64,000 bases of DNA from Candidatus Micrarchaeia archaeon (GTDB taxonomy: Archaea; Micrarchaeota; Micrarchaeia; Anstonellales; VGKX01). This document shows positions 1,242 through 46,952 of the stretch, in pieces (within the stretch, counting starts at the first letter, position 1; each line of letters opens with the position of its first letter). A model generated the notes under the pieces. It had not been told where the DNA came from. It made no database searches and saw nothing but the letters and a program-made list of their open reading frames with translations. Both the position numbers and the translations under genes were made by a program. The stretch lies in the NCBI GenBank assembly GCA_041650395.1, contig JBAZLG010000003.1, positions 310,917 through 374,916 of the forward strand. The letters are read 5' to 3'.

Positions 1242-4200
1242 CTAATCTTCCTTTGGCGCGGGCGGCGCCGGCTTTTGCGGCCCTTCCTTTTGTTCCCGGA
1301 GGCCATAATCCCCGATAGGAATGTCCTGGGGCGGAACCTGCCCGTCGCCCTTGCCCCGCCTCCTCCTCGCCAGGAATTCCTTGACTGTCGCGGGCAGGCC
1401 GGACTTTGTCACAATAACTAGCTCTATGGCTGCGACTGCGATTCCAATCACGGGGTGCACAAACATGCCCGCGACCACTGGCAGCAATCCAAGCTCTATC
1501 GGGAAGAACGCCATGCCGATTGAAACGCGGTAAACCATGTACGCGGAGGCCGCAAGCACGAGCCACGCAAGCGGCAGGGCAATGGATTCCACGGGTATCT
1601 GCGGGAGCTGGATGCCCGGGGCAGGCACCACTTCGCCAAGCACGCACCTGCCTTCCATGTTGCAGAAGCCCGTGCAGCAGTCCGATGAAATCTGGCACTT
1701 TTGCAATAGCGGCGAGCACTCGGCGCACCTGTTTGCCACGCATTCGCCAGAGCAGCATTCCTTCGTGGACTGGCAGGACGCGCTTGGCAGCTTGCACTGC
1801 GACACCGGCAGGCGCGCCTCGCATACCGCCGCCTCGGAACAGTAGCCGGAGCAGCAGCTCGTGCCAAGCGAGCAGACCTGCCCGTCCGGCAGGCAAGCAG
1901 GCGGCTTGGCGCAGTCGACCACCTCGAACTGCTTTTCAGAATAGAGATAGCCATTGCGCACCGCAGTGACAACGAACGTGCCGTTTTGCGACGGCTGGAA
2001 TATGTATGCGCCCGTGCCGTTGTGGAACAGGCTTTCAGGCACCCTCACGTTTTTCACAATCCTGTAAAGGCTTAGTGTTGCGTCCGGCGGGCTGACCGAC
2101 GCGCTCCCGTAGAACTGGGTGCACTGCGCGTTCACTGTAAGGTTGATTGGCGGCAGCACAACAGGCGTCTGGTTGCGCTCAAGCGAGCATATGCCGTCCG
2201 TGCATATGCCCGAGCAGCAGTCATAATCGTTCTGGCACGAGACTGTCAGGTTGCGGCACGACGGCGGCACTGCGCAGGACTGGACAGTGAAGTACTTGCT
2301 TGTGGACGAATAGCCCACCTTGGACACTGAAAGCTGGTATGAGCCTGCCTCGGGCACGAAGACGTACTTGCCGGCGGAGGAGGTTGAAACAGACACGGGC
2401 GAGAGACCGAGGCTTGACGGCGTGACCTCGACAGAGGAGTCAAGCAGCTGGCGCGTGGCATAGTCCCTGACTGTTATGGTGGCGGTCTCGCCTGCGCAGG
2501 TAGCGGCGAGGTCGACTTGCAGCTTGCGCTCCACAGCCCCGCCTCCCGAAGACACGGGCGGCGGGCTTTGCGAGAGCGAGAACGTGGCATTGGCTGTGTG
2601 CGAATAGCCGAGGTAATCCGTTTCATAGAGCCTGACGGTATAGGTGCCATAGGCAGGCGCAGCCACAGAAAGGCTTGTGGCATTGCACGCTATGGCCGAG
2701 CTGTTTATCACAGTGCCGTTCGAGTCCGCAAGCTCGTAGGAGCACGATATGGAATTCTGCGGGTTGAGTATCCTGTAGACCATGGCGAAGTCGAGCGTGT
2801 CGGCAATGACCTGCGACTGCGCGGGCGACGCGATGCTTGCAGCAAGCTCGGAGAAGTCGGCCCGCAGCGCGAACACGGGGCTCGAGGTCGAATTCAGGCC
2901 GTCGGATATGACAGCCTGCCAGTAATAGGTCGTGTTGTCGGCAAGGCTGAAATATGCCGAAGGCGACGTGCCGGACTGGGCAAGCGCAAGAGACGACAGG
3001 CTCGTGCCAAGGTAGAACGAATAGTTGAGTGCTTGCAGGCTCGACTGCAGGTCCGTCGCATTTGCATAGACCTGCCAGGGCTGCTCGAAGGCCACAGTTG
3101 CGTTGGCGGACGATACAGAAACCAGGCTTGGCGGCGAGTTCTCCATGTAGGTCCTGGTGCCTGAATAGCCAAGCCTTGAATCCGTTGTCGCCACGAGAAC
3201 GGAATAGTTGTATGAGCCTGCCTGCGCAGTTGGGAGCGAATAGGAACAGTAGGCAGGCGGCGCCTGCGAACTCAACGTGCCATTGAAGCTTATGCCGTTG
3301 ATGGTGACAGTGCATGAAGAGATGTTTGCAACCGCGCTGATTGACGCGTTTATGTCAAGCCTGCCAGTGCTGCCTATGTAGTTTTGCGCGGGCGTGGGCG
3401 CCACGAACTGAACCGAAGGCGCGCTCAAGTCTATCGTGAAGTTCCACTCGCTGGAATTCGCAGAGAATCCGGTGCCGTCAAACCCTGCCACGCGCCAGTA
3501 ATACGTGCCTGGCGAGAGCGACAAGTTGGTTGCCGATGAAGTTGAAATGCCATAGAATGCCGGGCCTGGCGAAGTGCCCATGTAGAGGTAATACGACACA
3601 TTGTCGCCGTCAGGGTCGGCGGAGTCGGACCAGTCGAAGCTGACATTGCCGTTTGTCAGGACCTGCCCGCTTGAAGGCGCAATCAGGTACGGCGCCTGCG
3701 GGGCTGTGTTTTGCACGGTGAGGGCCGACGAGTTCGCCGCAGTGCCATTGAGGGTGCCGTCCGTCGGGACAACCTCAAGCGTCCAAATCTGGCCTTTCAC
3801 GACTTCAGAAGCGGGGATTGACGAGACAAGGCCGGAAACCCCCGACTGGAAGCCGGAGGCAAAGCCGGTCCTGTTCCTCGCCCCATTGAGGTACCATGAA
3901 TAGTAATACGATATTGAATCGCCATTGGGGTCAGTTGACGTGGCCCAGCCGTATATGGCGTTCTGCCTGGCAACGTAGGTGCCGTTTGTGGAATTGAGCA
4001 GGCTGACAGAACCCGCCTGCGGCGGCGCATTGGGTATCGACTGGATGGTGGTAGACGCCGACGCATTGGTGTAGTCTGTGCCGTCGAACGCGCTTGCAGT
4101 GCACGTCAGGTTAGTGCCTGCCGGGCAAGTGGATGCAGAGCATGCGAACTGGCTCGAGGATGAGAACGCCTGCACCACGCCGGAGCCAGTTGAGAACTGG

Positions 4201-7200
4201 TAGCGCACTGCCAGGCTGTCCCCGTCAACGTCCGAATACGGCGTCAGGTTGGTGCAGTTCACAAGCGTGCCGGGGTATGCAGGGGCGGATATGCCGACTG
4301 CGAAGTCTGTCGGCGGCGTGTTGCCTATAGTGATTTCGGTGGAATTGATTGCCTGGCCGTCAGCCATGCCGTCGCTTGGCCTGATTTCAAGCACCCATCT
4401 CTGGCCTTTAACTATGCCGCCGGTCCTGTTTGCGGCATTGGACTCAATGCCCTGGGCGAAGTACGCAGACGAGCCCGAAGAATTGAGCGTGCCATTGAGA
4501 TACCACTTGTAATTGTAATATACCGGGTCTGACTGGTTGTCGGTGGCGTTTGCCATGCCAACAAGTATGTAGCCGCGCCTGAACCCGCTGCCCCCGGTGG
4601 AATTGACAATCCGCGAGGAGAGCGCCGCGGGCGGCGTGTTGGCAGGCGAGGATATCACCCTGCTTACAGTGGCGTCAGTGTGGTCCGTCCCGTCGCTTGC
4701 CCTGATTGTGCAGGACAGGGTCATGCCGGCCGGGCATGTGGCAGGCGAGCACGAGAGCGTGCCCGCCGGGGAGAATGCCTGAAGCTCGGTTGTGGAATTG
4801 AAGAACCTGTAAGTGAGGGACACGGCGTCGCCGTCAGCGTCGGTTATCGCCGAAGTGTTGGCGCAGGTCACGGTCGAGTTAGGATACATCGGGACCGGAG
4901 AGAGGCCCGCCCCGAACGTGGACGGCGGCGAGTTCTGCACCACGTAGGACGTCGAGTTCTGTGCCGTGCCGTTGAGATAGCCGTCTGTAGGTATTGCCTG
5001 GCAGAATACCGTGTCGGACTTGTTGAAGTACGAGCTTGGAATCACCTGCGAAGCCGATACGAGGGCGCCGTTGACATACCACGCGTAATGCATCGAAGTC
5101 GAATCATTCTCTGGGTCCGACACGCTCGCGTTCTGGCAGGTCAGGCTCGGGTTGGCCTTCATGACAGGCACCGGCACAATGGAAGGCGCCGATGTCACGG
5201 GCGCGCCGTTGGGGAACGCGTGGACAGAAGGCGTAGTGGATGCCTGCTGCGACGCGCTGTCCCTGAACGTGATCGAGATGGTGGTGGAGACGCCTGACGC
5301 GCCGGTGCAGTAATAGGTTGCGTTAAGCGTCTTTATGCCCTGGGATATCGACTGGACAGTGCACGTGCCAGAGCTTGCAGAAATCTGGATGTTCGTGATG
5401 TCCTCCGAGCCGTCCGCGTCATATACCCCGCCTGTAACAGTGAACGAGTGGTTGGACGCCGAGTCCGCAAAGGTGTTTTGCACTGCGATGTACGGCGGGC
5501 TGTTTAGTATCTGCGTCGAGTTTGTCGCCGAAGTCGAGTTGATGCCGTACTGGTTGATTATTATGGCGTCCACATAGAGCCTGCCGGAGCAGCCTGCGGC
5601 AATGGAGCAGTCAAACGTGGCATTGCTTGAATACGCCCTGAGCGTGGCGGTCGAGTTCCTCACCCTGTAATAATAGGTATAATTGGTTCCGTCAGGAGTG
5701 GACGCGCCATAGCCTGCGAACGTGAAGCTGGAATTGCCATAGCCAGGCGACGGGCTGATTGTCACATTGGCAGGCGGGAAGGGCACGGAGCTCACGATTG
5801 TCAGGTTTGCCGAAGACTGGCTCGTGCCATTGGCATAGCCGTCTGTCGGGGTTATGCTGCACGAGACAATGTCTCCAATGGAGTATGAGGAGTTTGTCAG
5901 GTAGGATGTGGCTATTCCTGCCGAAGCGCCATTGACGGACCACGAATAGTAGAATGACACAGTGTCATTGTCGGGGTCGCTGGTGCTGCCGTTGGTGCAG
6001 TTTATCTGCGGCGTCTGCTTGTATGCAGTCGACGGTGCAAGGGACGGCGCCGAGGTCGCGGGCGCGTGGTTGGGGTATGAGTTAGCTGCGGGCGCCGACG
6101 CGTTGTACGCGCCCGACTTGTCGGTGAACCCGATCGAGACGGTGCTTGAGGCGAAGGCTGTGCCTGTGCACTCGTATGTCACATTGAAGTAGGAGCCAGA
6201 AGTGTAATTGGAAACATAAACGCACGAGCCGCTTGAAGAGGAAATGTTGGTCGAGGCTATGTCAGAGCCGCCGTCGGCGTCATAAACCCCGGCAGTGGCC
6301 CTGAACTTGTGGCCCGCGCTCTGGTTGGCAAAAACACTCTCGACTGCCAGCGCAGGGTTGGAATTGGATATCGCAAGCCCGGAGGAATTTGCCGCAGTGC
6401 CATTGAGCAGGCCGTCTGTAGGCGTCACCTGGCAGATTACAATGTCATTCTTATAGAAGTACGAGTTGTTGATTGAAGCTGCCGAGGGGGCAACCGCCAC
6501 GCCATTGACATACCACTTGTAATAATACGATACAGTGTCGCCTTCCGCGTCGAACGTGTTGTTTGGAGTGCAGCTTATCTGGGCAGTTGACTTGTAGGCA
6601 GGAATTGGGGCGAGTATCGGGGCAGCGGTGGTGGGCGCCGTGTTGTTTATCAAAAGCGCGCTCGAGTTGCGCGCCGTGCCGCTTGCCGTGCCGTCAAACG
6701 GCCTGATTTCGCAAACCACGCTTTGGCCGTTGGTGTATGACGAGTTAGTTATGTACTGGGTCGTTATGCCCGAATACGCGCTGTTGACAAACCACCTGTA
6801 AGTGAATGAGACCGAATCGCCGTCAGCGTCAGAGGTTGTCCCGTTGTTGCAGGTTATGTTTAAGGTAGTCTTGGCTGCCGTGGGCGGCGCGAGAGTCGGC
6901 ACTCCCGTCACAGGCAGGCTGTTTGATATCACAAGAGCGGAAGAATTGGACGCTGTGCCGTTCTGGTAGCCGTCATAAGGAGTGGCCTGGCAGACAAGGG
7001 AGTCGCCCCTGGCATAGGAGGCATTCGTGATGGAGCTTGTTGAAACCCCGGCACTTGCGCCGTTCTTGAACCACGAATAGCTGACTGACACCGTGTCATT
7101 GTCGATGTCCGCGCCTGTCGCCGAGCAGTTGACCTGCGCCGTAGTCACATACGCCGTGGAAGGCGAGAGGCTGATGTTGGAGATGGCAGGGAGATGGTTG

Positions 7201-10200
7201 GGGTATGAGTTCGCTGCTGGCGCAGACGCGTTGTACGCGCCCGACTTGTCGGTGAACCCGATTGAGACGGTGCTTGAGGCGAAGGCTGCGCCTGTGCACT
7301 CGTATGTCGCATTGAAGTAGGGGCCCGAAGTGGAATTGGAAACGTAAACGCACGAGCCGCTTGACGAGGAAATGTTGGTCGAGGCTATGTCAGAGCCGCC
7401 GTCGGCGTCATAAACCCCGGCAGTGGCCCTGAACTTGTGGCCCGCGCTCTGGTTGGCAAAAACGTTTTCGACTGCCAGCACAGGGTTGGAATTGGACACC
7501 ACGAGCGCCGAGGAATTGACTGCCGTGCCGTTCGCGATGCCGTCAAAGGGCGTTACCTGGCAGACAACCAAGCTCGATTTGTTGAAATTCGAGCTTGCAA
7601 GGTACGGGGTCGAGGCAGCCTGCGCCACGCCGTTGACGTACCACCTGTAGAAGAAAGCCACAGTGTCGTTCTCATTGTCGCTTGTGGTGCCATTGGTGCA
7701 GTTTATTTGTCCGCTGGACTTGTATGCGGGAATTGGCGAAAGAGCCGGTGCTGCGGTTACAGGCGGGGTGTTTGTAAGGGCGAGTATCGTCGAGTTAACA
7801 GCCGCGCCATTGCCGATTCCGTCATTGGGAGTAATCTGGCAGCGCAGGTCCACTGCATTGTAATAGGTGGCGTTGGTGACGGACTGGCCAGTTATGCCGG
7901 TAGAGGCATTGTTCACAAACCACAGGTAGGAGAACGTGACAGAGTCGCCATCGGCGTCCGCCGTCGTGTTGTTATAACACGTTATTGCAGGCGTGTTCTT
8001 GTTTGCCACTGAAGGCACGAGGTATGGCGCGCTTGTCACAGGCAGGCTGTTGGAAACCACAAGCGCGGTCGAATTCACCGCCGTGCCGTTCTGATAGCCG
8101 TCATAAGGAGTGGCCTGGCAGACAAGGGAGTCGCCCCTTGCATAGGAGGCGTTTGAAATGGAGCTCGTGGCAATGCCAGTGGACGCGCCGTTTTTGAACC
8201 ACAGGTAATTCAGTGTTACCGTGTCATTGTCCGCGTCGGACGGGGAGGCCGTGCAATTCACCTGCAAAGTAGATGCGTAGGCCACGGCAGGCGCCAGAGT
8301 CACGTTGGTTGCCACGGGCAGGTGGTTTGGATATGCAGCCACTGAAGGAGTCGAGGCATTGTAAGCGCCCGACTTGTCCGTGAAGCCGATTGAGACAGTA
8401 GTTGATGCAAGCGCGGTGCCAGAGCACTCGTATGTCACGTTGAAATATCCGCCCGCGGTCGAGTTTGAAACGTAAACGCACGAGCCGGAGGTCGAGGAAA
8501 TGTTGGTCGAGGCCATGTCTGAAGCCCCGTCGCCGTCAAACACGCCCGCGCTCACGCGGAACCTGTGCCCGGCGCTCTGGTTAGCTATCGAGTTCTGCAA
8601 TGCCATCTGCGGCACGGAGTTCAGTATGGCGAGGGGCGAGGAATTGACGCTTGTGCCATTGACAAACGGGTCTGAAGGCGTTACCTGGCAGACTATGGAG
8701 TCGCCCTTGGAATATGATGAATTCGTTATTGACTGGCTTGAAACCCCGGCAGAATTGCCATTTACAAACCACTTGTACGACAGCGTGACATTGTCGCCGT
8801 CCGGGTCATAGGTCGAATTCGCGCTGCAGGTTATGGAAGGCGTGGTCTTGTAAGCGGGCGTAGGCGAGAGCACGGGCGTGCCTGTGACAGGCGGCGAGTT
8901 TATCACCTGGACCTGCGACGAGTTCATGCTCGTGCCGTTTAGCTCCCCGTCAAAGGGAGTTATCTGGCAGATTATGGTGGCTCCATTGGAGAATGAAGAG
9001 TTCGTCAGGTTCTGGCTTGTAATGCCGGAAAAGTTGCCATTGACAAACCACTTGTAGTAGAATGACACATTGTCGCCGTCAAAGTCGGAACTCGTGCCGT
9101 TCACGCACGACACCTGCGACGTGTTCTGGTAAATGGTTGGCGGCGCTATTGCGGGGACCGAAGTCACGGGCGCCGTGTCCAGCACGGTGATTGTGGTGGA
9201 ATTTACGGCAGAGCCATTGACAGGGCCGTTTGTGGGGGTGGCTTCAAGGGTCCAGTTCTGGTGCTTCACTACGCCCGTGCCTGTGATGTTGGCTATGTTC
9301 ACAAGCGCGCTAGACGCGAAGCCGTTTGGAGTAGAGTAATTGACAATGGCATATACCTGCGTGACAAAGGTCGAGCCTGAAGTCGCCGGCCCTTTCGCCT
9401 TTACGCCGATTTGCAGGCTTGACATGTCCGCGGAGTTCCAGTTGCCAAAGTCGCTTGGCCTGTATTGCCATGAATCCGAGTATGTAGCCCACGAGGAAGT
9501 GACAGAGTGCGCTGCCCCCAGGGTCGTCACATTGTGCTCGCGTATCGCAAGCTCCACGGTCCCGCCAGTGCCAGCGCCGAATGATTCTGCGACCGCGAAG
9601 AGTTCCAATGAAGTGATTGGCGAGCCCGAAGGCACAATGCCGGACGTCACAGTGTAGAGGTCGAGCAGGTATGAGCCCGAATCCGCGAACACGTAGGACG
9701 TGAGGCCGTCCATAGACGCCTCGTCAACGCTTTGCCAGTTTGGCGGCGCGGGTTCCGCGCTTAGCTGGCTTGAATTGCCGATTCCCGCGGGGCGCAGGGT
9801 TGCGTTAGACGGCGCGGAAACAACCCCGATAGAGCCGCTTGAATTCAGGGTGCCGTCAAGATACCATTTGTAGTAATAGCCGAGGTTGTTGCCGTCAAAG
9901 TCAGTGCCATTTGCATAGCCGAGAAGGCTGGAATTCGTGTAAAGCGCGCTGCCGCCCGTGGAGTTCCTTATCTGGACAAGCGAGAGCTGCGGCTCGGAGC
10001 CCACTGCCACAAAGACAGAGGACGTGGCATTGGAATAGCCGTTTGAAGCGGTGACCTCAAATTTCCACCTGTCCCCGCCCACGGCAGGCGTGGAGTTGCC
10101 TATGTTTGCTTCAATTCCTTGCAGCACCGGGCCGAAACTGCCCGTGGAATTGAGCACCCCGTTCCTGTACCACTTGTAAGTGTAATTGAGCGTGTCATTG

Positions 10201-13200
10201 TCAGCCTGCGACGCGTTGGCATAGCCTACAAGCACGGAGCCGTTCCTAAACGTAGTGCCGCCAGTGGAATTGAGCACGCGCAGGGATGGAATCGAAGGGG
10301 GCATGTGCGAGATGGCAAAGGGCGATGAGTTGAGGGCGGTGCCATTGTCCAGCCCGTCAAAAGGCGTGATTTCAAGCACCCAGACCGAGTCCGCGGACAG
10401 GGACGAGTTTGGTATGGAGGAAATGTTCACAAGCCTGCCCTGCGTGTAATTGCCCGCAGCCACGCCGCTTGAGAACAATGCCCCGTTCTTGTACCATTTA
10501 TAGTAATATGACAATGTGTTGTTGTCCGCGTCAGTGGCATTGGCAAAGCCCACAAGGGTTCCGGAGCTGTCTGCGTAAGTGCCGTTTGTGGCATTGAGTA
10601 TTGTGCTGTTCGCCATGACAGGCGGGATGTTGGCATATGATATATATACGGGGCTAGAGTTGAGCGCCTGGCCCCTGATGCCGTTTGAGGGCGTGACCTC
10701 GAGTGTCCAGTTCTGGTATGAGACCAGGCCCGAGAAGTTCTGGACATTCACAAGCGCGGACGGCGAATACCAGCCATACGTGGAGCGGGCTGCCTGCTGG
10801 CCTATGCTGGCGTTTAAAATCCGGACCTCGTCAATCAGGCCGACAAAGCCGGAGTTGCGCGAGCCTGTGGCAAAGCCGTTGTCAGGCTCATAATTCGCCT
10901 TGCCCCTGCCTATGAGCGCAGTGTCGAATGTCATTGCCGGCATGCCGAAGGAGAAATTCGCCGCCTGGAACTCGTTGAGGTAAATGCTGGTTGTTGTGGA
11001 ATTGGCGCTGTATGCGATGTATTCCCATTGGCTGCTGTCAAGCGGGCCAGTGTAGAGGTTGCCCGAGAACGGCGCTATTGTGCCCAGGTAATACGTTATC
11101 CCGCTCTCGCCAGTGCCCGCGTAAATCATGCCCGTTGATGCCTCAAGCAGGGACTGGACGTATTTGGAGCTTGTCGAGGGGCCTATGTTGGCGTTCATGA
11201 GCGACCATGAGGCGCCCTTGTCAGCGCTCTTGTACACCCTGCTCCTGTATGAGGACGAGCTTGTTCCAATCCTCGCGCCCGCGTAGATTGTTCCGTCCGA
11301 GCCTTCAAGCAGGGACTGGACGTCAGAAGCGCTTGTGAGCGTGCCGGTGTTTGCCCAAGTCGTGCCATTGTCAGTGCTTTTTAGCACCCTGCCCGAAGTG
11401 GATGTCTGTGACGCGGCCGCGTAGATGGAGCCATCGTCCGCCGCCAGGAACGCGTTTACCGAAACCGAGCCTGAATAAGCCGAAGACCAGCTGGAGCAGT
11501 CCGCGCTTTTGTAAATCTCCCCTGACGCGCTGCCCGCGAGGAACGTGCCCTGCGAAGTTATCATGAGGGAATTGACTGCCGTGGCGCCGACAACAGAGCC
11601 GCATGAGAGTTGCCATGAGCCGCCCGAATATTTCAATATGTTCTCGGTGTCCGTGGCCACGTAAATTGAGCCATCAGGCGCGCGCGCAAGCTGCGTGGCG
11701 GTGGTTGCTCCTGAAAGCGAGCCAGTGTCTGTCCAGTTGGACAGGTTTGAGGCCGAATAATAGACCTTGGCCGTGCCCGCACCGTCATCTCCCGCAGCAT
11801 AAACAGAGCCGTCGGGCATCACCAGAATCGAATTCACAAGGGTGGAAAGCCCCGCATAGCTCCAAGTGGCGCCGTCGTCGGAGCTTGAATACAGGCCGAT
11901 GTCGGTCCCTGCAAGAAGCTTGCCGGACGGGGACTCGGCAAGGCTCCTCACAATGCCGCCGCCGGAGATGGTGGAAGAGTTCCACGCCCCCGCCTTGTCA
12001 ATAGCAGTGGCGTAGAGCCTGCCAGATGAGAACGAATAGCCGATTTTGAGCTGGGAGAGGTTGCCGCCAAGGACGATATAGTCCATGTTGGTTTTGTTGC
12101 CGGAATAATTGGCAGAGAGGTTGGGGCGAAGCCACATTTCAACCGACAATGCGTTAAGGCCGGACATCTGGGCAGAAGTGACGTTCGCGTAGATTTGCGC
12201 CGCCGCCTGCGAGTTTGAAGAATATGATTCCTGCGGGAAATATCTCGCATTTCCAAAGCGCGCCGCAGAGACGCCTGCGCCGCTTGTCGCAGTCGCATTG
12301 AACCTGCCCGTGGCGTCTGCGACTAGGGTGCCGTTGGTTTCGCCCATGTGCCAGAGCCCCAGGGTTGAATTGCCAAGTGCGAAAGTCGAGGCATTTGAAA
12401 CGTGGTCGGCGTAGCGCAGAGTGCCGTCCTGGTACCATTTCAGGTAATAAGTAACCATGTCAGAGGAATTGGCGCTTGTCGCGTTTGCCCAGCCTGTCAG
12501 GTTCATCCTGGCATTGAAATACGTGCCGCCCGTAGAATTGAGTATTGCCGATAGGTTCATGCGCGGGGGCTTTGACCCGCCGCCGCCCGACTCCACGCAC
12601 GTCCACGCGCACGTGCCGTCCGGGCACATCATGTTTGGCGCAATGCAGTTCGGGTCATAATCGCAAGTTGACGGCGTGATGCCGTTTATCCTTACCCACG
12701 CGGCAGTGCCTGAAACAGATATGTTCTGTGGTATTCCTACGTGCACGAAGTCGGAGCCTATCAGGTTGTCGTTCGAGTCGTATACGCCCACCACGTTGCT
12801 CATTCTCGAGACATTGTCCGTAAGCTGCCATGAATAGTTGGTCAGCCGCAGGCCGGGGCTTGTGCAAAGCAGCCCTGTGTATGCGTCCGTGATATTTACA
12901 GTGACAACGGAGCCGGACTGGCTCATGTTCGCGCGGTAGCTGCCCACAAGCCAGCCGCCGGGTGCGTCCATTTTCTCCTGCTGGTCGCGCGTCACGTCGA
13001 GGCTCGTATAATTTGAAAAGACGACGGTGACAAGCCCGGGCAGGCGCGACTTTATGTCCTGCACGTCTATGTCGTAAAGCGAGCAGTTGACCGGGTCGGG
13101 CACGAAATAAGCCAGGCCGGGGCCGTAGTTGTGGACATATGAAGTGGTGTTGTTTTCAATGAAGAAAAGCCCGACCCTGGAGCTGTTATAGCCCGGCTGG

Positions 13201-13394
13201 CAGACCTTGAGCCAGAGGTTGTCCTGGTTTGTCAGGCTGCTGTCCTTGTAGCTTTCAGTGCCGCTGTCCCAGTGCAGCCAATATGTGTTATTGGACTGGT
13301 CGACGAAACTAACAGTGGCGAAAAGGTTGCCTGCTAGGATGAATGCCGCAATGGCGAGAAATGCATAAACTGATGCCTTGTGCAAATTGACCAC
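1242..13394 (-). CDS. Giant (4050 aa) secreted, membrane-anchored surface glycoprotein/adhesin. Architecture N to C: signal peptide, LamG-like jelly-roll domains, BNR/Asp-box beta-propeller repeats, more than 14 beta-sandwich modules with DxDxDG motifs, an FN3/PKD-like module, knottin-like Cys modules, 3 C-terminal TM helices and a K/P-rich cytoplasmic tail
   Basis: A single uninterrupted 12.15-kb ORF. N-terminal signal peptide MVNLHKASVYAFLAIAAFILAGNLFA. LamG-like motifs (LGLWHMGETNGTLVADATG...VEMWLRP and GLIDEVRILNASI). Asp-box repeats SxDxGxTW (SSSDDGATWSY, STDNGTTWANTG, SADKGASWSL). Repeated roughly 95-aa modules with DADGD/DPDGD followed by Y(Y)YKW(Y/F)xNG, then CQxTPxDG. C-terminal CxxxxxxCxxDxDCCSGxC cysteine modules, three hydrophobic helices, then a basic Pro-rich tail. 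Dozens of N-x-S/T sequons. The start codon lies 4 bp downstream of the upstream gene's stop. Confidence 0.85.
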   Translation of the reverse strand: MVNLHKASVYAFLAIAAFILAGNLFATVSFVDQSNNTYWLHWDSGTESYKDSSLTNQDNLWLKVCQPGYNSSRVGLFFIENNTTSYVHNYGPGLAYFVPDPVNCSLYDIDVQDIKSRLPGLVTVVFSNYTSLDVTRDQQEKMDAPGGWLVGSYRANMSQSGSVVTVNITDAYTGLLCTSPGLRLTNYSWQLTDNVSRMSNVVGVYDSNDNLIGSDFVHVGIPQNISVSGTAAWVRINGITPSTCDYDPNCIAPNMMCPDGTCAWTCVESGGGGSKPPRMNLSAILNSTGGTYFNARMNLTGWANATSANSSDMVTYYLKWYQDGTLRYADHVSNASTFALGNSTLGLWHMGETNGTLVADATGRFNATATSGAGVSAARFGNARYFPQESYSSNSQAAAQIYANVTSAQMSGLNALSVEMWLRPNLSANYSGNKTNMDYIVLGGNLSQLKIGYSFSSGRLYATAIDKAGAWNSSTISGGGIVRSLAESPSGKLLAGTDIGLYSSSDDGATWSYAGLSTLVNSILVMPDGSVYAAGDDGAGTAKVYYSASNLSNWTDTGSLSGATTATQLARAPDGSIYVATDTENILKYSGGSWQLSCGSVVGATAVNSLMITSQGTFLAGSASGEIYKSADCSSWSSAYSGSVSVNAFLAADDGSIYAAASQTSTSGRVLKSTDNGTTWANTGTLTSASDVQSLLEGSDGTIYAGARIGTSSSSYRSRVYKSADKGASWSLMNANIGPSTSSKYVQSLLEASTGMIYAGTGESGITYYLGTIAPFSGNLYTGPLDSSQWEYIAYSANSTTTSIYLNEFQAANFSFGMPAMTFDTALIGRGKANYEPDNGFATGSRNSGFVGLIDEVRILNASIGQQAARSTYGWYSPSALVNVQNFSGLVSYQNWTLEVTPSNGIRGQALNSSPVYISYANIPPVMANSTILNATNGTYADSSGTLVGFANATDADNNTLSYYYKWYKNGALFSSGVAAGNYTQGRLVNISSIPNSSLSADSVWVLEITPFDGLDNGTALNSSPFAISHMPPSIPSLRVLNSTGGTTFRNGSVLVGYANASQADNDTLNYTYKWYRNGVLNSTGSFGPVLQGIEANIGNSTPAVGGDRWKFEVTASNGYSNATSSVFVAVGSEPQLSLVQIRNSTGGSALYTNSSLLGYANGTDFDGNNLGYYYKWYLDGTLNSSGSIGVVSAPSNATLRPAGIGNSSQLSAEPAPPNWQSVDEASMDGLTSYVFADSGSYLLDLYTVTSGIVPSGSPITSLELFAVAESFGAGTGGTVELAIREHNVTTLGAAHSVTSSWATYSDSWQYRPSDFGNWNSADMSSLQIGVKAKGPATSGSTFVTQVYAIVNYSTPNGFASSALVNIANITGTGVVKHQNWTLEATPTNGPVNGSAVNSTTITVLDTAPVTSVPAIAPPTIYQNTSQVSCVNGTSSDFDGDNVSFYYKWFVNGNFSGITSQNLTNSSFSNGATIICQITPFDGELNGTSMNSSQVQVINSPPVTGTPVLSPTPAYKTTPSITCSANSTYDPDGDNVTLSYKWFVNGNSAGVSSQSITNSSYSKGDSIVCQVTPSDPFVNGTSVNSSPLAILNSVPQMALQNSIANQSAGHRFRVSAGVFDGDGASDMASTNISSTSGSCVYVSNSTAGGYFNVTYECSGTALASTTVSIGFTDKSGAYNASTPSVAAYPNHLPVATNVTLAPAVAYASTLQVNCTASPSDADNDTVTLNYLWFKNGASTGIATSSISNASYARGDSLVCQATPYDGYQNGTAVNSTALVVSNSLPVTSAPYLVPSVANKNTPAITCYNNTTADADGDSVTFSYLWFVNNASTGITGQSVTNATYYNAVDLRCQITPNDGIGNGAAVNSTILALTNTPPVTAAPALSPIPAYKSSGQINCTNGTTSDNENDTVAFFYRWYVNGVAQAASTPYLASSNFNKSSLVVCQVTPFDGIANGTAVNSSALVVSNSNPVLAVENVFANQSAGHKFRATAGVYDADGGSDIASTNISSSSGSCVYVSNSTSGPYFNATYECTGAAFASSTVSIGFTDKSGAYNASAPAANSYPNHLPAISNISLSPSTAYVTTAQVNCSATGADIDNDTVSVSYSWFKNGASAGVSTSSITNASYARGDSLVCQATPYDGYQNGTASNSSALVISNSLPVTGVPTLAPPTAAKTTLNITCNNGTTSDADGDSVSFTYRWFVNSAYSGITTQYITNSSYTNGQSVVCEIRPFDGTASGTARNSSALLINNTAPTTAAPILAPIPAYKSTAQISCTPNNTFDAEGDTVSYYYKWYVNGVAVAPSAASINNSYFYKNDIVICQVTPTDGLLNGTAANSSGLAISNSNPALAVESVFANQSAGHKFRATAGVYDADGGSDIASTNISSSSGSCVYVSNYTSGSYFNVTYECTGTAFASSTVSIGFTDKSGAYNASAPAANSYPNHAPATSAPSLAPSTAYKQTPQINCTNGSTSDPDNDTVSFYYSWSVNGASAGIATSYLTNSSYSIGDIVSCSITPTDGYANGTSQSSANLTIVSSVPFPPANVTISPSPGYGNSSFTFAGYGASTPDGTNYTYYYRVRNSTATLRAYSSNATFDCSIAAGCSGRLYVDAIIINQYGINSTSATNSTQILNSPPYIAVQNTFADSASNHSFTVTGGVYDADGSEDITNIQISASSGTCTVQSISQGIKTLNATYYCTGASGVSTTISITFRDSASQQASTTPSVHAFPNGAPVTSAPSIVPVPVMKANPSLTCQNASVSDPENDSTSMHYAWYVNGALVSASQVIPSSYFNKSDTVFCQAIPTDGYLNGTAQNSTSYVVQNSPPSTFGAGLSPVPMYPNSTVTCANTSAITDADGDAVSLTYRFFNSTTELQAFSPAGTLSCSPATCPAGMTLSCTIRASDGTDHTDATVSRVISSPANTPPAALSSRIVNSTGGSGFRRGYILVGMANATDNQSDPVYYNYKWYLNGTLNSSGSSAYFAQGIESNAANRTGGIVKGQRWVLEIRPSDGMADGQAINSTEITIGNTPPTDFAVGISAPAYPGTLVNCTNLTPYSDVDGDSLAVRYQFSTGSGVVQAFSSSSQFACSASTCPAGTNLTCTASAFDGTDYTNASASTTIQSIPNAPPQAGSVSLLNSTNGTYVARQNAIYGWATSTDPNGDSISYYYSWYLNGARNRTGFASGFQSGVSGLVSSIPASEVVKGQIWTLEVVPTDGTLNGTAANSSALTVQNTAPQAPYLIAPSSGQVLTNGNVSFDWSDSADPDGDNVSYYLYMGTSPGPAFYGISTSSATNLSLSPGTYYWRVAGFDGTGFSANSSEWNFTIDLSAPSVQFVAPTPAQNYIGSTGRLDINASISAVANISSCTVTINGISFNGTLSSQAPPAYCSYSLPTAQAGSYNYSVLVATTDSRLGYSGTRTYMENSPPSLVSVSSANATVAFEQPWQVYANATDLQSSLQALNYSFYLGTSLSSLALAQSGTSPSAYFSLADNTTYYWQAVISDGLNSTSSPVFALRADFSELAASIASPAQSQVIADTLDFAMVYRILNPQNSISCSYELADSNGTVINSSAIACNATSLSVAAPAYGTYTVRLYETDYLGYSHTANATFSLSQSPPPVSSGGGAVERKLQVDLAATCAGETATITVRDYATRQLLDSSVEVTPSSLGLSPVSVSTSSAGKYVFVPEAGSYQLSVSKVGYSSTSKYFTVQSCAVPPSCRNLTVSCQNDYDCCSGICTDGICSLERNQTPVVLPPINLTVNAQCTQFYGSASVSPPDATLSLYRIVKNVRVPESLFHNGTGAYIFQPSQNGTFVVTAVRNGYLYSEKQFEVVDCAKPPACLPDGQVCSLGTSCCSGYCSEAAVCEARLPVSQCKLPSASCQSTKECCSGECVANRCAECSPLLQKCQISSDCCTGFCNMEGRCVLGEVVPAPGIQLPQIPVESIALPLAWLVLAASAYMVYRVSIGMAFFPIELGLLPVVAGMFVHPVIGIAVAAIELVIVTKSGLPATVKEFLARRRRGKGDGQVPPQDIPIGDYGLREQKEGPQKPAPPAPKED
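4800..9300 (-). repeat. Four tandem copies of an intragenic repeat with an 1128-bp (376-aa) period inside the giant gene. The two central copies (about 5930-8185) are nearly identical at DNA level
   Basis: Antisense ORF translations recur at a 1128-bp offset (5962..6192 vs 7093..7320; 7096..7353 vs 8224..8481). The stretch 6181-6330 is about 95% identical to 7311-7460. The protein-level super-repeat NP(V/A)LAVE(N/S)VFANQSAGHKFRATAGVYDADGGSDIASTNISSSSGSCVYVSN... occurs twice almost verbatim, with two diverged flanking copies. Confidence 0.7.
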
Positions 13395-13398
13395 TTTT

Positions 13399-15099
13399 TC
13401 AGGACAGCCATTTCGTGACGTAAGAGTACAGCGAGGCCACGATGTTGTTCAGCGCAGCCACCTGTCCCTGGTTGATTATCCCTGTCCTCAATAGCCCGGG
13501 GTTTTGCGGATTGGGGTTGACAACTGTCATGTTGACCGACTTGAGCGCGGTGCCGGAGCTTGTGTAAGACGAGACGGAGATGTAATACGGCCCGAGTGCC
13601 GAAGTGTAAAGTGCCGGGTCAAGCACGTATGTCCTGTTTCCCGTGGGTATCAATGCAAACGACGCCATGCCCGACTCGTTCGCCATCACCTGCGCCATGC
13701 TTGTCGGCTTGAGGGAATAATTGGTATTGTTGGCGGCCCAGACCTGTATGGGCGCGAATATGCTCACGCCATTGTATTCGGCAAGCCTGATTATGTCGCC
13801 GAAGTGCGAGCCGCCGGCCGAGTCGTAGACAACCACTGTGACATTGTAAGGCCTGCCCGCGTACGTGAAGTTCGTTGACAGGCTGCCGTCCACGTAAACG
13901 TCCATGAACACTACCTTGTATATGGTCTTCTGGCTTGAGGCATTGTTGTTGGACTCGCTTGTCTCGTTCTGCACGTTCGCGCTGTCGCATGACACCCAGA
14001 ACGTGGTCGGGTTGTCATTCGCATTTGACAGGTTCCACATGGACGTGTTTATCGTGATGCTCTGCGTCGTGGTGGAGCCGGGCGGTATTTCGCCGGAAAC
14101 AACCGTGGAGCCCAGCACGTTTGAGGGGCTTATGCTGTTCCTGTAGAAGGTCACGTTGAAAGGCGTAGAGGCATTGACATTGCCCGCATTGCTCACGACG
14201 GTGCTTATCGTCAGGTTGTCGCCGTAATACACAGTGCCCGAGGGCGAGTATGACGGGGAGGAGCATGACAGGTCCACGCCAACTGAAAAGGAGGTTGAAA
14301 ATCCGTTATAGACAAGATACCTTGTCTGGGATGACGCCTTTGCCTGCGCTGCTGTCACCCCAGTCTGGAGAAGCACGGTGCCAGTCCGTGTTGTAAGGGT
14401 TGAGGAGGAACAGTTCTGCCCAACGGTGTCAGTGCAAACGCCTATGGCTATCTGCTGGTTGTCGGCGCTTATTGTCGAGGGGCCCGTGGTTGCCGTGCCG
14501 GTTATGGAGCTGAAACCCAGTAGGGTCACCTGACCTGTGTTCTGGTTGTACGATGAGGCGAAGGAGGGGACCGAATAAGAGCCCCTCATCCAGCCTCCGG
14601 ATTGCGGGATGAATACGAAACTGTCAGTCAGGCCGGGGCTTGAATCCGGCGAGACCACGGCATAGGCATAGGCGGGATAGACGCCCGGGGTGTCAAGGGC
14701 AGAGGTCGTGTCCCTGTAATAAGCCCCTGGGCTGCCCTGTTCCGAGCCGAAGGGGTCAAGGCCGTAAATGCCGTTAGTGGTGGTGGTGAAAACGTAATAG
14801 CTCGAGTTAACACGGTATGCGAAGCCGCCGTATGAGCCGTCGGCTATGTCCCCCGAATTGGTGTAATACACGCGCAGCTTGACGTTCGGGTTGCTTGTCG
14901 TGCCGTCAAGGAAGTTCTTGGCGCTCGTGTCGTAGTAAAGGCCCACGGGAAGCCCGGTGCTGTCGGAGGCTATGGTGGCGTTTATTATGTAGGGATATGC
15001 AACGGGCAATGCAAAAAGCGCGGCAAATAACAAGAACAGTAGCAATGAGCGTGGCTTAATACCCAATTTCCTCCCCTTATGCTTATTGCCGCGATACAT
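13399..15099 (-). CDS. Secreted sequon-rich surface protein (566 aa), co-operonic with the giant protein; possible S-layer or cell-surface component
   Basis: Signal-peptide-like N-terminus (KPRSLLLFLLFAALFALPVAYP). Very high density of N-x-S/T and Ser/Thr. The stop is 4 bp from the giant gene's start. No recognisable catalytic motifs. Confidence 0.7.
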   Translation of the reverse strand: MYRGNKHKGRKLGIKPRSLLLFLLFAALFALPVAYPYIINATIASDSTGLPVGLYYDTSAKNFLDGTTSNPNVKLRVYYTNSGDIADGSYGGFAYRVNSSYYVFTTTTNGIYGLDPFGSEQGSPGAYYRDTTSALDTPGVYPAYAYAVVSPDSSPGLTDSFVFIPQSGGWMRGSYSVPSFASSYNQNTGQVTLLGFSSITGTATTGPSTISADNQQIAIGVCTDTVGQNCSSSTLTTRTGTVLLQTGVTAAQAKASSQTRYLVYNGFSTSFSVGVDLSCSSPSYSPSGTVYYGDNLTISTVVSNAGNVNASTPFNVTFYRNSISPSNVLGSTVVSGEIPPGSTTTQSITINTSMWNLSNANDNPTTFWVSCDSANVQNETSESNNNASSQKTIYKVVFMDVYVDGSLSTNFTYAGRPYNVTVVVYDSAGGSHFGDIIRLAEYNGVSIFAPIQVWAANNTNYSLKPTSMAQVMANESGMASFALIPTGNRTYVLDPALYTSALGPYYISVSSYTSSGTALKSVNMTVVNPNPQNPGLLRTGIINQGQVAALNNIVASLYSYVTKWLS

Positions 15100-15137
15100 T
15101 TAAAATTACCTTTTCATGCCAGTGGAGGCAGGTTTTA

Positions 15138-16742
15138 TCATGTTCCATAGACAAGCCACGCATTGAGCCTGTCATAGGCCCTGAAAACGTAAAGAATCGC
15201 GGCGTCGAGGTTTGCCCTGTTTGGCAGGGTGCCGCCGTTATACGAGGGGGTTATTGTATAGTCCCTGTTTGTCACGTTGAATTCCTTTGAGAAAAATTGG
15301 CTGCCGCCCGGGTATTTGCCCACCATGACAAGCGTATATGGCCCGATTTTGGCTTCCTGCCCGATAACGCCGCCTGTAGGGGTGATGACGAACTGGACAT
15401 TGCCGTTTGAATCAGTGCGCGTGTATGCATAGCCGTAATTGGTCACATTGGAGTCCGTGAACTGGTTCATTGCCCATGAAATGTAGCCGTTTTTCTCCAT
15501 GATTTCTATGGTGGCGTTCGCGATTGGCGAGTTGTTGGCATATCTTGCAGTCAGGTTGAGGGCTATGGGCATGGCGGCCCTGACAGAGGAGGGGAAGCCG
15601 GTTGACGTGTTGTCCGAAAGGATGGTCACGTTGTAGGTCGGCCCGCCGCCATAGGTCATGTACGCGTCGTAAAGCCTGTAAATGAAATTGTTCTCCGCCT
15701 GTATGTTGGCCCTGTTCGCCGGGCTCTTGCGCATAGTTGCCGCGACTGAATCAGACGCAAGGTCCCTGTTTGTTATGTTGAGGTAGATTGTGGCAAGAAC
15801 CGAGCCTGTCGAGCTAAGCAGTTCGACCCGTGCCGAATAATTGCCTATCTTGGGGTCGATGAAGACGCTGCCGCCCGTCGGGACGATGGTGAATGACGGG
15901 AAAGTGCCGTTCACGGCTGAAACGATGCCCACTGCCTCGTTTGAGACATTGCTTTGCGTATATTGCGGCAGGGCGAGGGGCAGCCATGAGTTGTCCTCGA
16001 TTACCCTGACATAGGAGCCCGATGTGGCATTGAGCACGGTTAGGTTGAGCGGGTCGCCTGCGACGAACATGACAGTTGTGACGTTGTTGTCAAGCACCAG
16101 AGTGAAATTGCCAGTTTCGCCGCCGTACGCCCCAGTGAAGAAGAGCGTGATTGTCTCGTTGTACGTGCAGGTCTGGTTGCCGCCGGTGAATCCGCCAGAA
16201 AGGCGCAATGACTCGTTTTTTGTGTTGTTCGTGCCGTCGGGCGAGAAAAGGGAGCTTGAGACGTAATAGCTGCCGTTTATCAGCAGGAGGTCGTGGAAAG
16301 TGGTATAATTGAACACGTCGCAGACCTGCAATGGCGAGGCCGAGCTGTTTGGCACGCTTGTCCAGTTGGAAAGCGGGTTGGCGCAGGAAGCGGGGGCGTA
16401 GTTTGACGCAAGGACCTGGAAAAGCGGGTCCGCGCCCTGGTTGGTGAAAGAATTGGCATTGACGGATACCGGGACATTGCCGGTGTTGTTGAGTATGAAG
16501 TAGAAATCGTAATACGTGCCTATGCTGCCGTTGGTGACATTGAAGAAATGGATGGATGCGTTGGCGCCGCAGGTCGCCACGATTGTGAGGCCGAGAGTGC
16601 CGCCGGAGGAATAGGACTGCGCATGGACGGCGGGGGCAGCAAGAATCACAATAGGCAACAAGGCAAACAGGGCCATGAAGGCTGTTTTTGCAAAGTCCGG
16701 CAAGCCATTGGCCTGCCGCCTATCAATGCGTCTCCCACACAT
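15138..16742 (-). CDS. Secreted sequon-rich surface protein (534 aa), first gene of the surface-protein operon
   Basis: Hydrophobic signal segment MALFALLPIVILAAPAVHAQS (an alternative start is the Met at 16676). Many N-x-S/T sequons. There is a 38-bp spacer to the next gene on the same strand. Confidence 0.7.
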   Translation of the reverse strand: MCGRRIDRRQANGLPDFAKTAFMALFALLPIVILAAPAVHAQSYSSGGTLGLTIVATCGANASIHFFNVTNGSIGTYYDFYFILNNTGNVPVSVNANSFTNQGADPLFQVLASNYAPASCANPLSNWTSVPNSSASPLQVCDVFNYTTFHDLLLINGSYYVSSSLFSPDGTNNTKNESLRLSGGFTGGNQTCTYNETITLFFTGAYGGETGNFTLVLDNNVTTVMFVAGDPLNLTVLNATSGSYVRVIEDNSWLPLALPQYTQSNVSNEAVGIVSAVNGTFPSFTIVPTGGSVFIDPKIGNYSARVELLSSTGSVLATIYLNITNRDLASDSVAATMRKSPANRANIQAENNFIYRLYDAYMTYGGGPTYNVTILSDNTSTGFPSSVRAAMPIALNLTARYANNSPIANATIEIMEKNGYISWAMNQFTDSNVTNYGYAYTRTDSNGNVQFVITPTGGVIGQEAKIGPYTLVMVGKYPGGSQFFSKEFNVTNRDYTITPSYNGGTLPNRANLDAAILYVFRAYDRLNAWLVYGT

Positions 16743-16761: not shown

Positions 16762-16782
16762 AGATATTTATAAATATAATTA
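16762..16782. promoter_or_regulatory. AT-rich palindromic TATA-like element (ATATTTATAAATAT) between the divergent surface-protein operon and proS; candidate bidirectional archaeal promoter
   Basis: TTTATAAATATA sits about 25-36 bp upstream of the 16742 start codon, which is leaderless-like geometry. It is the only AT-rich element in the 128-bp GC-rich divergent spacer. Confidence 0.35.
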
Positions 16783-23969: not shown

Positions 23970-24041
23970 GATTACACCGGAATTTGACTTCGGGAAATTT
24001 CAATGAAGGCCGGAAATGGCAGCAAGCTGCCTGATTGGCCT

Positions 24042-24545: not shown

Positions 24546-24639
24546 GATGACCAAGGGATATGCGCTGGAAAGAATAAAAAGCGGATTAAACGCCAGGAAA
24601 AAATGAAATTGAAAAAAAGAAAAAAGTGAAGGCAGGCCT

Positions 24640-25152: not shown

Positions 25153-25651
25153 TCCAATCACCGTTGTGTTTTTTTGCCCCTTTTTAATTCGTTAATAGGG
25201 CTAGGCATCAAGACAATCAATGGACCAATCAAGGTTCAAGGCGAATCAATGCGCGAATCGGTTCAGGTAACGAACCCCACATTCCGAAAAGCTTCAGGAT
25301 ATACGAATCAAGGGTATTTAAAAGTAGCGGGGCAACCTAAAAGTAAATAAAGAGGAAATAGCGAATTAATGATGGGATGAATATGGACAAAAAGAACTCC
25401 ACAATTCTATCTGGCAAACAACTTGAGAGATACATAAACTCCGTTGACAAGGCCATTGAAAAAAGTTTTGCCGCTAACAAAAAGGCGCTGGAATACCTGG
25501 CCAAGAGATAGTGCAACCTCCATGGAATTCAGAGAGCACCGAAAAAATCAGGCAAGACACTGGAAATGTCTCTAGCAACTCTTTTTAAATAGGAAAAAGC
25601 AAGTTGAATCCAGGAAAGGGAGGATAGCTTATTCCGCATAGGTGCGACTTA

Positions 25652-27187: not shown

Positions 27188-27201
27188 GCAGGGGTTGTTT
27201 C

Positions 27202-28131: not shown

Positions 28132-28155
28132 CAAAAATAGCAAGAGGAAAAATTA

Positions 28156-28590: not shown

Positions 28591-28606
28591 GGGAGGTTTG
28601 GAGAAC

Positions 28607-46943: not shown

Positions 46944-46952
46944 GGGCAGGGT

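Follow-up and report, generated by a model that had tools for sequence, protein, structure and literature searches.

DPANN archaea rely on physical contact with their hosts, and few of the proteins responsible for it are known. The present analysis concerns a three-gene operon, g1-g2-g3, on the minus strand of a 64,000-nucleotide stretch (the window) from a Candidatus Micrarchaeia archaeon (contig JBAZLG010000003.1, positions 310,917 to 374,916), the third gene of which specifies a surface protein of 4050 amino acids (aa). Giant proteins and proteins with LamG, PKD, propeller or CARDB domains have been proposed as host-interaction factors in Micrarchaeota and other DPANN archaea (PMC5498576; PMC10266531; doi 10.1101/2023.10.27.564410). 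The closest described examples are the strain-specific PKD/β-propeller/CARDB fusions and expanded LamG proteins of Mia14 'Ca. Mancarchaeum acidiphilum' (PMC5498576), the lectin- and pectin-lyase-like glycoproteins of Nanobdella (doi 10.1101/2023.10.27.564410), and the giant membrane-anchored proteins of Nanohaloarchaeota, namely SPEARE and the 9409-aa protein SVXNc_0300 (PMC6642349; PMC10266531). Intercellular structures of Micrarchaeota have been seen by cryo-electron tomography, and their identity was left explicitly unresolved (PMC11329633).

The products of the operon resemble the Mia14 and Nanobdella surface proteins in coming from the same phylum or superphylum, in appearing to be secreted and heavily N-glycosylated, and in having a proposed role in host interaction. 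The domain vocabulary is also shared: LamG, propeller, CARDB and Ig/PKD-like domains, with a β-helix in relatives of the locus. Compared by description, the published accounts list single proteins by their known domains, whereas the A-B-C trio and the H and T modules detailed below do not figure in them. The g3 protein has in common with SPEARE and SVXNc_0300 a giant Sec-exported ectodomain of Ig-like repeats, a large share of a small DPANN genome, and a proposed function in host binding. However, neither a VirB4/TraG-like ATPase nor a protease or coiled-coil tip domain was seen in g3; the protein would be anchored by three C-terminal hydrophobic segments, and is partnered by g1 and g2 instead of by secretion ATPases; no sequence relationship between g3 and these proteins was found. 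As g3 contains no ATPase domain, it is not of the SPEARE type, and its neighbors are a prolyl-tRNA synthetase (ProRS) gene and an open reading frame (ORF) with a ParB-like motif. As a kind, g3 belongs to an already described class, the DPANN giant surface proteins. What the locus adds is the cassette to which g3 belongs, the module grammar of that cassette, and a nested arrangement of LamG and propeller domains.

Comparisons of the three protein sequences showed that g1, g2 and g3 are tied together by two shared modules, H and T, for neither of which a described family was found. The T module is ~160 aa in length; g1 has two copies (aa 212-367 and 371-534) and g2 has one (aa 398-566). Homology among the copies was apparent from BLASTP alignment of g1 aa 217-363 with g2 aa 403-562 (E 1e-6) and from hidden Markov model (HMM) scores of 183-212 bits. 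An AlphaFold2 model built from a 17-copy alignment predicts a β-sandwich, with predicted local distance difference test (pLDDT) values of >90 in the core and ~60-66 in the terminal helix, and as modeled the T module is an Ig/macroglobulin-like sandwich that ends in a conserved helix. Sequence searches of the PDB with T produced only weak, non-significant matches (E≥0.03). The H module is more variable in length (~170-270 aa) and is sited directly after the signal peptide. It joins g2 aa 38-206 with g3 aa 27-275 (hhalign probability 98.2%, E 3.9e-14), and no relative of it was detected in Pfam, NCBIfam, PHROGs or the PDB. The remainder of g1 consists of a signal peptide (aa 1-41, cleavage site AVHA/QS) and a domain designated X with four conserved Cys residues (aa 42-211) that precedes the two T copies, T1 and T2; a PDB sequence search with g1 gave no usable match. 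The g2 protein has a CARDB domain between H and T. The domain was matched in 23 of 28 members of the g2 family, and the family profile retrieved PDB entry 2l0d at E 4e-12.

HMM scans of the window and of loci L002-L011, scored for the presence of H and T and for gene order, indicated that the trio is a conserved cassette in which gene A has the form X-T-T, gene B the form H-CARDB-T and gene C the form H-payload. The preliminary description of this DNA had proposed a search for homologous operons in symbiotic or episymbiotic archaea. In other DPANN archaea such operons were found as orthologs with the same gene order in three other Micrarchaeota assemblies (L002, L003 and L008), as a paralog (L004), and in a more distant form (L007/L010/L011). 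Orthologs of g1 were 87, 77, 75 and 69% identical to g1, and the paralog 41%. At L008 (g1 87%) the g3 ortholog is ~85% identical over the portion that is on the contig, and the L003 contig (g1 75%) ends ahead of g3. L002 is part of a metagenome-assembled genome (MAG; GCA_964752355.1, CBANNR010000053.1). Its g1 and g2 are 69 and 59% identical to those of the window, and its g3 is colinear in one frame across 2172 codons with 62.9% identity; the g3 identity given for the orthologous operons as a set is 57-63%. At ~6569-6571 the L002 g3 ortholog has one in-frame TAA in place of the Tyr codon of the window (ADDGSIY), for which sequencing error, recoding or a recent nonsense mutation may be responsible; its frame is otherwise unbroken. 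The same MAG harbors the paralogous operon L004 (CBANNR010000009.1, 5977-11068), in which g1′ and g2′ are 41 and 48% identical to g1 and g2, and gene C (g3′, 596 aa) has only the H module in common with g3, followed by a β-helix. Thus, one genome can carry several cassettes with different payloads. The distant DPANN cassette L007/L010/L011 consists of gene A (3059 aa, X-T-T), gene B (546 aa), gene C (1161 aa, H-X-T-T) and a second B gene, B′ (564 aa); here the giant is gene A, not gene C. A B gene was located directly behind every T-T gene in the cassettes examined, including both pairs of L011.

Gene B is the length-constant member of the cassette, whereas genes A and C range from ~500 to >4000 aa. 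Word-indexed homology searches, which scored the 8000 best candidates, returned few relatives, and an exhaustive HMMER search was used instead for the B family. With representatives of clusters at 50% identity, 731 proteins passed a threshold of E≤1e-3 and 62 the stricter one of E≤1e-30, and ~55 of the 62 strong matches were full-length proteins of 540-610 aa. The few family members that bear names are all hypothetical proteins of Micrarchaeota, Woesearchaeota and Diapherotrites. A locus search with a narrower alignment retrieved two metagenome loci only. Judged by these comparisons, the giant portion of g3 is a variable payload of the cassette and not its conserved core. In a literature search of limited scope, neither the A-B-C cassette nor its H and T modules turned up in any paper.

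The rules by which H and T are deployed were assessed by HMM scanning of 173 fetched proteins. A single T was present in 75 and a tandem pair in 31, and T never occurred in more than two copies. T nearly always ends within 12 residues of the C-terminus, as in all 31 tandem pairs; two exceptions are listed among the single-T proteins. T and a C-terminal transmembrane (TM) segment were never found in one protein, and such a segment was present in 4 of the 15 proteins with H only. One of these four, P0155 (670 aa), comprises H, Cys repeats, a CPD-reg-like domain, a TM segment and a tail, and looks like a minimal version of g3 from which the 3300-aa insert is missing. The T modules separated into three position-specific classes, A-T1, A-T2 and B-T, such that for 135 of 137 modules the nearest neighbor in another protein was of the same class.

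ORF coordinates agree with the operon layout of the preliminary description, that is, genes of 534, 566 and 4050 aa on one strand, set apart by 38 and 4 bp. Both g1 and the 566-aa form of g2 begin at ATG. The public gene calls give a 544-aa g2 that starts at an internal TTG, a choice that cuts the basic n-region off the signal peptide. Conservation of the N-termini in the L002 and L004 homologs supports the ATG at 15099. The 4050-aa g3 starts at GTG; the public call begins at a TTG three codons further in and yields 4047 aa. The g1 protein is on record with identical sequence as WC506_06495, a hypothetical protein of Candidatus Micrarchaeia archaeon, and the assignment of the DNA to a small uncultivated archaeon was borne out by this source (Micrarchaeota, DPANN). 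Among species-representative genomes, the closest locus is in a Candidatus Micrarchaeota MAG. The TATA-like box TTTATAAATA ahead of g1 likely is the archaeal promoter of the operon and its position points to a leaderless or near-leaderless transcript. Archaeal housekeeping genes flank the operon, namely those for L15e, RNase P Rpp14, RtcB and ProRS, the last of which is divergently transcribed. Downstream of g3, at a distance of 143 bp and on the same strand, is a 265-aa ORF (302-1099) with an LDGNHRF motif that is ParB/sulfiredoxin-like; it has no signal peptide and no Pfam match at 1e-3, and probably lies outside the surface operon.

The three proteins each open with basic residues and then a hydrophobic segment, which leads to an AxA-like cleavage site that the homologs retain, in keeping with the signal peptides that had been noted from the sequence. 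The extreme Ser/Thr/Asn content described previously was likewise evident, at 28.8% in g1, 32.2% in g2 and 31.3% in g3. NxS/T sequons exceeded the expectation from 1000 composition-matched shuffles per protein: 27 against 9.7±2.7 in g1, 17 against 10.2±2.8 in g2, and 187 against 67.9±7.2 in g3. The three products look secreted through Sec-type signal peptides and look glycosylated. Class III (pilin) signal peptides, and with them a kinship to type IV pilin-like proteins or to subunits of archaeal threads or bundling pili, were considered and rejected in view of the Sec-type n-h-c regions, the AxA-like sites conserved in homologs and the protein lengths of 534-4050 aa. Archaeosortase-type C-terminal signals were rejected on reading of the termini.

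Whole-protein scans of g3 against Pfam and NCBIfam gave almost no matches. Internal comparison revealed a repeat module of 85-98 aa in ~21 copies between aa 284 and 3508. In sixteen copies the motif D-x-[DNE]-x-[DN] precedes Y-x-W-[YF]-x-N-G, and a Cys pair is conserved in most copies. In the PDB, the module profile matched best the extracellular cadherin (EC) repeats of protocadherin-15 (E 0.0046); none of the stretches was significant by itself, and the Pfam Cadherin family gave no match to the modules. As the best match reached only this value, the module is termed cadherin-like with no claim of membership. Module 1 is split. Its halves (aa 284-330 and 878-925) scored 21 and 25 bits alone and 47 bits when stitched together (HMM 2-83 of 87). 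Within it, the stitched segments aa 327-470 and 780-880 matched Laminin_G_3 (PF13385) with 38.0 bits against a gathering score of 27.6 (E 2.2e-9, profile 5-146 of 151); a Pfam scan of intact g3 does not see this LamG domain because of a 309-aa insert. The insert matched DUF6242 with 38.5 bits (gathering score 29) and Reg_prop with 36 bits (gathering score 20.4), whereas BNR_2, at 26.2 bits, was under its gathering score of 31.4, and three strict SxDxGxTW Asp-boxes are present at aa 504, 673 and 723. On the evidence of the stitched constructs, cadherin-like module 1 hosts LamG, which in turn hosts the Asp-box propeller. A PDB sequence search with the LamG/propeller region gave no usable match. 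Module 4 also is split, and its insert of ~175 aa occupies the same loop as does the LamG-propeller unit in module 1; PDB searches with this insert gave weak non-significant matches only (E≥0.03). The combination of a split module and LamG-like domain recurs in the unrelated T-T proteins P0087 and P0170.

Four B-type Ig-like modules of ~105 aa are distributed among the cadherin-like modules, and the two types build super-repeats of ~376 aa with 70-88% aa identity. A PKD (PF00801) match at aa 3228-3330 was under the cut-off (20.5 against 23.5 bits, E 5e-4), and alignment identified this unit as the divergent last copy of the main module. Near the membrane are two mutually related sandwich copies that resemble CarboxypepD_reg (PF13620); the score of 32.3 bits on the segment equals the gathering score, with 22.2 bits on the whole protein. 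Four 6-Cys modules at aa 3713-3917 have the spacing C-x6-C-x5-CC-x3-C-x4/5-C, and their matches to UPF0506 and conotoxins were all sub-threshold. The Cys residues of g3, 80 in total, are in pairs. The H module of g3 is conserved in L002, L008, the L004 paralog and L007. Signal peptide, ectodomain, membrane anchor and cytoplasmic tail would give g3 a type-I-like topology. Coordinates of these features are collected in Table 1.

Table 1. Features of the g1-g2-g3 operon, listed in order of transcription, with window coordinates.
Feature	Position	Strand	Residues	Basis and remarks
TATA-like box TTTATAAATA	16765..16774	-		~28 nt upstream of the g1 ATG; sequence reading
g1, gene A, X-T-T	15138..16742	-	534 aa	ORF and homolog comparison
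g1 T1 module, β-sandwich and end helix RANIQAENNFIYRLYDAYMT, then GGG linker	15642..16109	-	212-367	HMM 196 bits; class T1
g1 T2 module, β-sandwich and C-terminal helix ANLDAAILYVFRAYDRLNAWLV	15141..15632	-	371-534	Helix at the very end of the protein
g2, gene B, H-mid-CARDB-T	13399..15099	-	566 aa	Length-conserved member of the trio
g2 H module	14482..14988	-	38-206	Right behind signal peptide; hhalign versus N-terminal domain of g3
g2 CARDB domain	13936..14274	-	276-388	Pfam PF07705, 28.5 bits against cut-off of 22.7
g2 T module, C-terminal helix QGQVAALNNIVASLYSYVTKWL	13402..13908	-	398-566	HMM 183 bits; class B
g3, gene C, H-payload-TM	1242..13394	-	4050 aa	Signal peptide, ectodomain, three hydrophobic segments, tail
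g3 H module	12570..13316	-	27-275	HMM 476 bits; includes C-terminal Cys-rich stretch C244-C266
Cadherin-like module 1, N-terminal half	12405..12545	-	284-330	Stitched-construct HMM
LamG, N-terminal part	11985..12404	-	331-470	Stitched Laminin_G_3 match
Asp-box/BNR-type β-propeller inserted in LamG	11058..11984	-	471-779	Propeller profiles and motifs
LamG, C-terminal part	10764..11057	-	780-877	Stitched Laminin_G_3 match
Cadherin-like module 1, C-terminal half	10620..10763	-	878-925	Stitched-construct HMM
Cadherin-like modules 2 and 3	9966..10619	-	926-1143	Long-loop type; YYYKWY motif
Cadherin-like module 4, split	9168..9965	-	1144-1190 and 1368-1409	Stitched 77 bits, HMM 7-87 of 87
Module 4 insert, ~175 aa	9294-9824	-	1191-1367	No Pfam match
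Array of ~16 cadherin-like and 4 interspersed B-type Ig-like modules	3405..9167	-	1410-3330	Internal comparison
Further Ig-like domains, weakly supported	2520..3404	-	3331-3625	Big_7 E 0.0033; weak module match at aa 3433-3508
Membrane-proximal region, two CarboxypepD_reg-like sandwiches and four 6-Cys modules	1635..2519	-	3626-3920	
Three consecutive hydrophobic segments	1410..1604	-	3931-3995	Kyte-Doolittle scan; read as membrane anchor
Basic Pro/Lys-rich tail of 55 aa starting RRRR	1245..1409	-	3996-4050	Predicted cytoplasmic, positive-inside rule

The domain inventory of g3 in the preliminary description largely stood, but its simple linear order did not, as two modules are split by inserted domains. 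The Asp-box propeller was upheld, as were the DxDxDG/YYYKWY modules, put at more than 14, and the topology of a C-terminally anchored giant, with three hydrophobic segments in place of the TM helices noted and a Lys/Pro tail. LamG jelly rolls had been listed in the plural, of which only one could be verified, with the insert removed. The FN3/PKD-like unit is present, with the PKD score and origin given above, and the four knottin-like CCSG modules have inhibitor cystine knot (ICK) spacing with sub-threshold family matches. The view that no described family covers the whole also held, in that Pfam, NCBIfam, PHROGs and the PDB identified only CARDB, LamG, propeller and CarboxypepD_reg pieces. 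Among better known giants, g3 is reminiscent of cadherins and protocadherins and of bacterial Ca-binding repeat adhesins, among them SiiE and LapA/MpIBP-type proteins, in its long tandem array of ~90-aa β-sandwiches with acidic D-x-D-x-D motifs. The predicted ligand-binding domains are distal, as in cadherins, SiiE and LapA-type adhesins, and the sequence of signal peptide, ectodomain, TM segment and cytoplasmic tail is that of cadherins. Unlike cadherins, the g3 modules have a conserved Cys pair and loop-nested domains and no Pfam Cadherin match, and unlike SiiE and the LapA/MpIBP giants, export of g3 would be via Sec and not a type I secretion system. The four 6-Cys modules follow the ICK consensus spacing of knottin peptides, but are embedded in tandem at a membrane-proximal site within a giant archaeal membrane protein. 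Elsewhere in the window, two tandem paralogous proteins (38494-40644, minus strand, 716 aa; 40730-42796, minus strand, 688 aa) have 104 and 98 Cys residues (~14%), N-terminal hydrophobic helices, zero NxS/T sequons and no Pfam match. Their repeats, such as CSPGQYCCSDNTCKSDC, share a CC-containing style with the four Cys modules of g3.

The products of g1, g2 and g3 probably constitute one hetero-oligomeric, glycosylated surface adhesion apparatus: the shared modules and the presence of the same trio in other DPANN archaea suggest assembly into a single attachment structure. The g3 protein would be the membrane-anchored stalk, with its H module at the mature N-terminus and so at the distal tip of the ectodomain; with roughly 30 sandwich domains, it would in extended form reach a length on the order of 100 nm. 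With no anchor in either g1 or g2, both must bind to something in order to stay on the cell, and may do so by docking through their H and T modules. A 2+1 joint would arise from the T pair of g1 and the single T of g2, and the g2 H module would pair with that of g3, thereby tying the g1-g2 pair to the anchored protein. Consistent with a 2+1 joint are the strict pairing of T-T genes with a single-T B gene, the lack of any chain with three or more T modules, and the separate conservation of the T positions. An H-H contact is suggested by the homology between the H modules of B and C. The three T classes fit three non-equivalent places in one assembly. LamG, the propeller, CARDB and the X domain of g1 would be presented as ligand-binding parts, and the targets of the complex may be glycans or proteins, either of a host or partner cell or of a substrate. 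The surface location is supported by sequon enrichment, the paired Cys residues of g3 and domains of CARDB, LamG, propeller and cadherin-like types. An adhesin role for g3 would agree with its domain types and with the literature on DPANN surface proteins (PMC5498576; PMC10266531). A more far-reaching and doubtful proposal is that H and T are dedicated non-covalent connectors, by which exchangeable payloads are plugged end-to-end, through a pseudo-trimeric 2+1 joint of T modules and a joint between H modules, into long fibers anchored by H-TM proteins, g3 being one.

A number of observations weigh against a joint apparatus of this design. The case for the 2+1 T joint and for H-H pairing is drawn entirely from gene order, copy-number rules and position-specific conservation. 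The T helix is moderately amphipathic (hydrophobic moment, muH, 0.32-0.35), with the pLDDT values noted above, and the structure model of full-length g2 (pLDDT 45) was unusable for fold search. Gene C of L004 has no TM anchor, and that complex would need another one. At L005 (Logan SRR18502801, 1839-4984), a divergent variant, a 559-aa protein that has a TM segment in its interior and ends in a lone T is followed by an H protein of 492 aa with a TM anchor at its C-terminus, and no T-T gene is visible on the 5-kb contig, at odds with the 2+1 rule. H is present in two copies in the window and three in L011, so that no closed stoichiometry emerges, and the cassette types that were examined number only three or four independent ones. 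Moreover, a single ENA contig accounts for all records of the 4047-aa form of g3, and no record of the 4050-aa form was found.

The main rival reading, although unlikely, is that the three products are independent surface proteins that act in parallel, with T an envelope anchor whose helix binds the S-layer or the surface of the membrane, H a distal binder, and the shared modules a result of duplication and shuffling. Polarity is alike in all three proteins, with variable or binding parts N-terminal and the conserved part C-terminal, and T could itself be an anchor given that T-containing proteins never have a TM anchor; bacterial SLH domains provide a precedent for C-terminal envelope-binding modules. 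The single-T protein of L005 that has no T-T partner also sits comfortably with independent action. Left unexplained, however, are the single-T B gene immediately behind each T-T gene, twice in L011, the limit of two T modules per chain, the separate conservation of three T positions, and the constant length of B against that of A and C. An S-layer or S-layer-associated lattice, in which g3 is the membrane-anchored stalk and g1 and g2 form the canopy, is improbable. The analogy would be with SlaA/SlaB; compared with this Sulfolobales pair and with the Micrarchaeota S-layer protein SLP_Mh (doi 10.1101/2021.04.28.441871), the present trio likewise forms a co-encoded set of glycosylated, Ig-rich surface proteins with one partner anchored in the membrane. 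The secreted, glycosylated and Ig-rich character of the products, with one TM-anchored partner, recalls archaeal S-layer pairs in general (doi 10.1101/2023.10.27.564410), and g1 and g2 are better conserved than the g3 payload. Nevertheless, the trio has no sequence relationship with SlaA/SlaB or SLP_Mh and differs from them in its three partners, variable payloads and longer stalk. Membership of an ordinary S-layer family, an outcome that the preliminary description had allowed for, was rejected: none of g1, g2 and g3 matched PF05123, PF05124 or any other S-layer profile at E≤0.01, whereas the known Micrarchaeota S-layer protein is PF05123-type and of 101 kDa (doi 10.1101/2021.04.28.441871). 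A 4050-aa stalk would also far exceed the 20-25 nm pseudoperiplasm of Micrarchaeum (doi 10.1101/2021.04.28.441871), and paralogous cassettes with different payloads in one genome suit accessory adhesins better than a single lattice.

There is very little likelihood that g3 is instead a giant tethered glycoside hydrolase, with a sialidase-like BNR propeller and LamG, that degrades host or environmental glycans. The BNR_2 and Asp-box signals and a partial match to the F510_1955 glycosylhydrolase family (NCBIfam NF045728) point in that direction, but the latter reached 41.4 bits against a cut-off of 175 and covered profile positions 120-244 only, and BNR_2 was under its gathering score. The best propeller families, DUF6242 and Reg_prop, are non-catalytic; no solved relative of the region was found, and catalytic residues are not assignable. 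The least probable explanation is that the giant ORF is an assembly artifact or pseudogene, or the locus viral or mobile. The repetitive nature of g3, the record of the exact protein in one assembly only and the in-frame TAA of the L002 ortholog might be cited in its favor. Yet chance cannot yield an open frame of 4050 codons, and the L002 ortholog is colinear in one frame. Collapse of repeats within g3 is unlikely since its DNA contains zero exact repeats of ≥100 nt and the super-repeats are 69-83% identical, the source assembly having been made at k=141. Housekeeping genes occupy the flanks, and a viral origin was rejected in the light of a lack of matches in IMG/VR, INPHARED phage genomes and PHROGs.

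The locus suggests that at least some of the giant LamG/PKD/CARDB proteins that have been listed one genome at a time as "strain-specific oddities" belong to a conserved three-gene system, a cassette composed of a constant adaptor, the B family, and interchangeable payloads. The cassette would offer an explanation for how surface proteins that lack an anchor are retained on the cell. Gene B may serve as a marker for adhesion loci in DPANN genomes, and H and T are small modules amenable to testing. In the three-level nesting of cadherin-like module, LamG and propeller, domain insertion makes LamG escape routine annotation. If H and T do act as connectors, they would represent a previously unrecognized assembly principle for archaeal cell-surface appendages, with separately encoded payloads of up to several thousand residues, and a candidate basis of the host-contact structures of Micrarchaeota (PMC11329633).

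Scans of the 64-kb window for tRNA genes and Rfam families gave no match. An AT-rich island at ~24000-29000 (GC 35-49% compared to 54-59% elsewhere) contains genes for an Eco57I/N6-type methylase (25652-27187) and a BsuBI/PstI-type endonuclease (27202-28131), and probably is a horizontally acquired restriction-modification unit. A [FeFe]-hydrogenase large-subunit-like gene (50223-53102, minus strand; Fe_hyd_lg_C and small-subunit domain) adjoins a gene for a NuoF-like flavoprotein, which fits with the [FeFe] hydrogenases reported in anaerobic archaea including DPANN (PMC11216029). Adjacent genes for a full-length bacterial-type MutS, with all five domains, and MutL are located at 44382-48695 on the plus strand.

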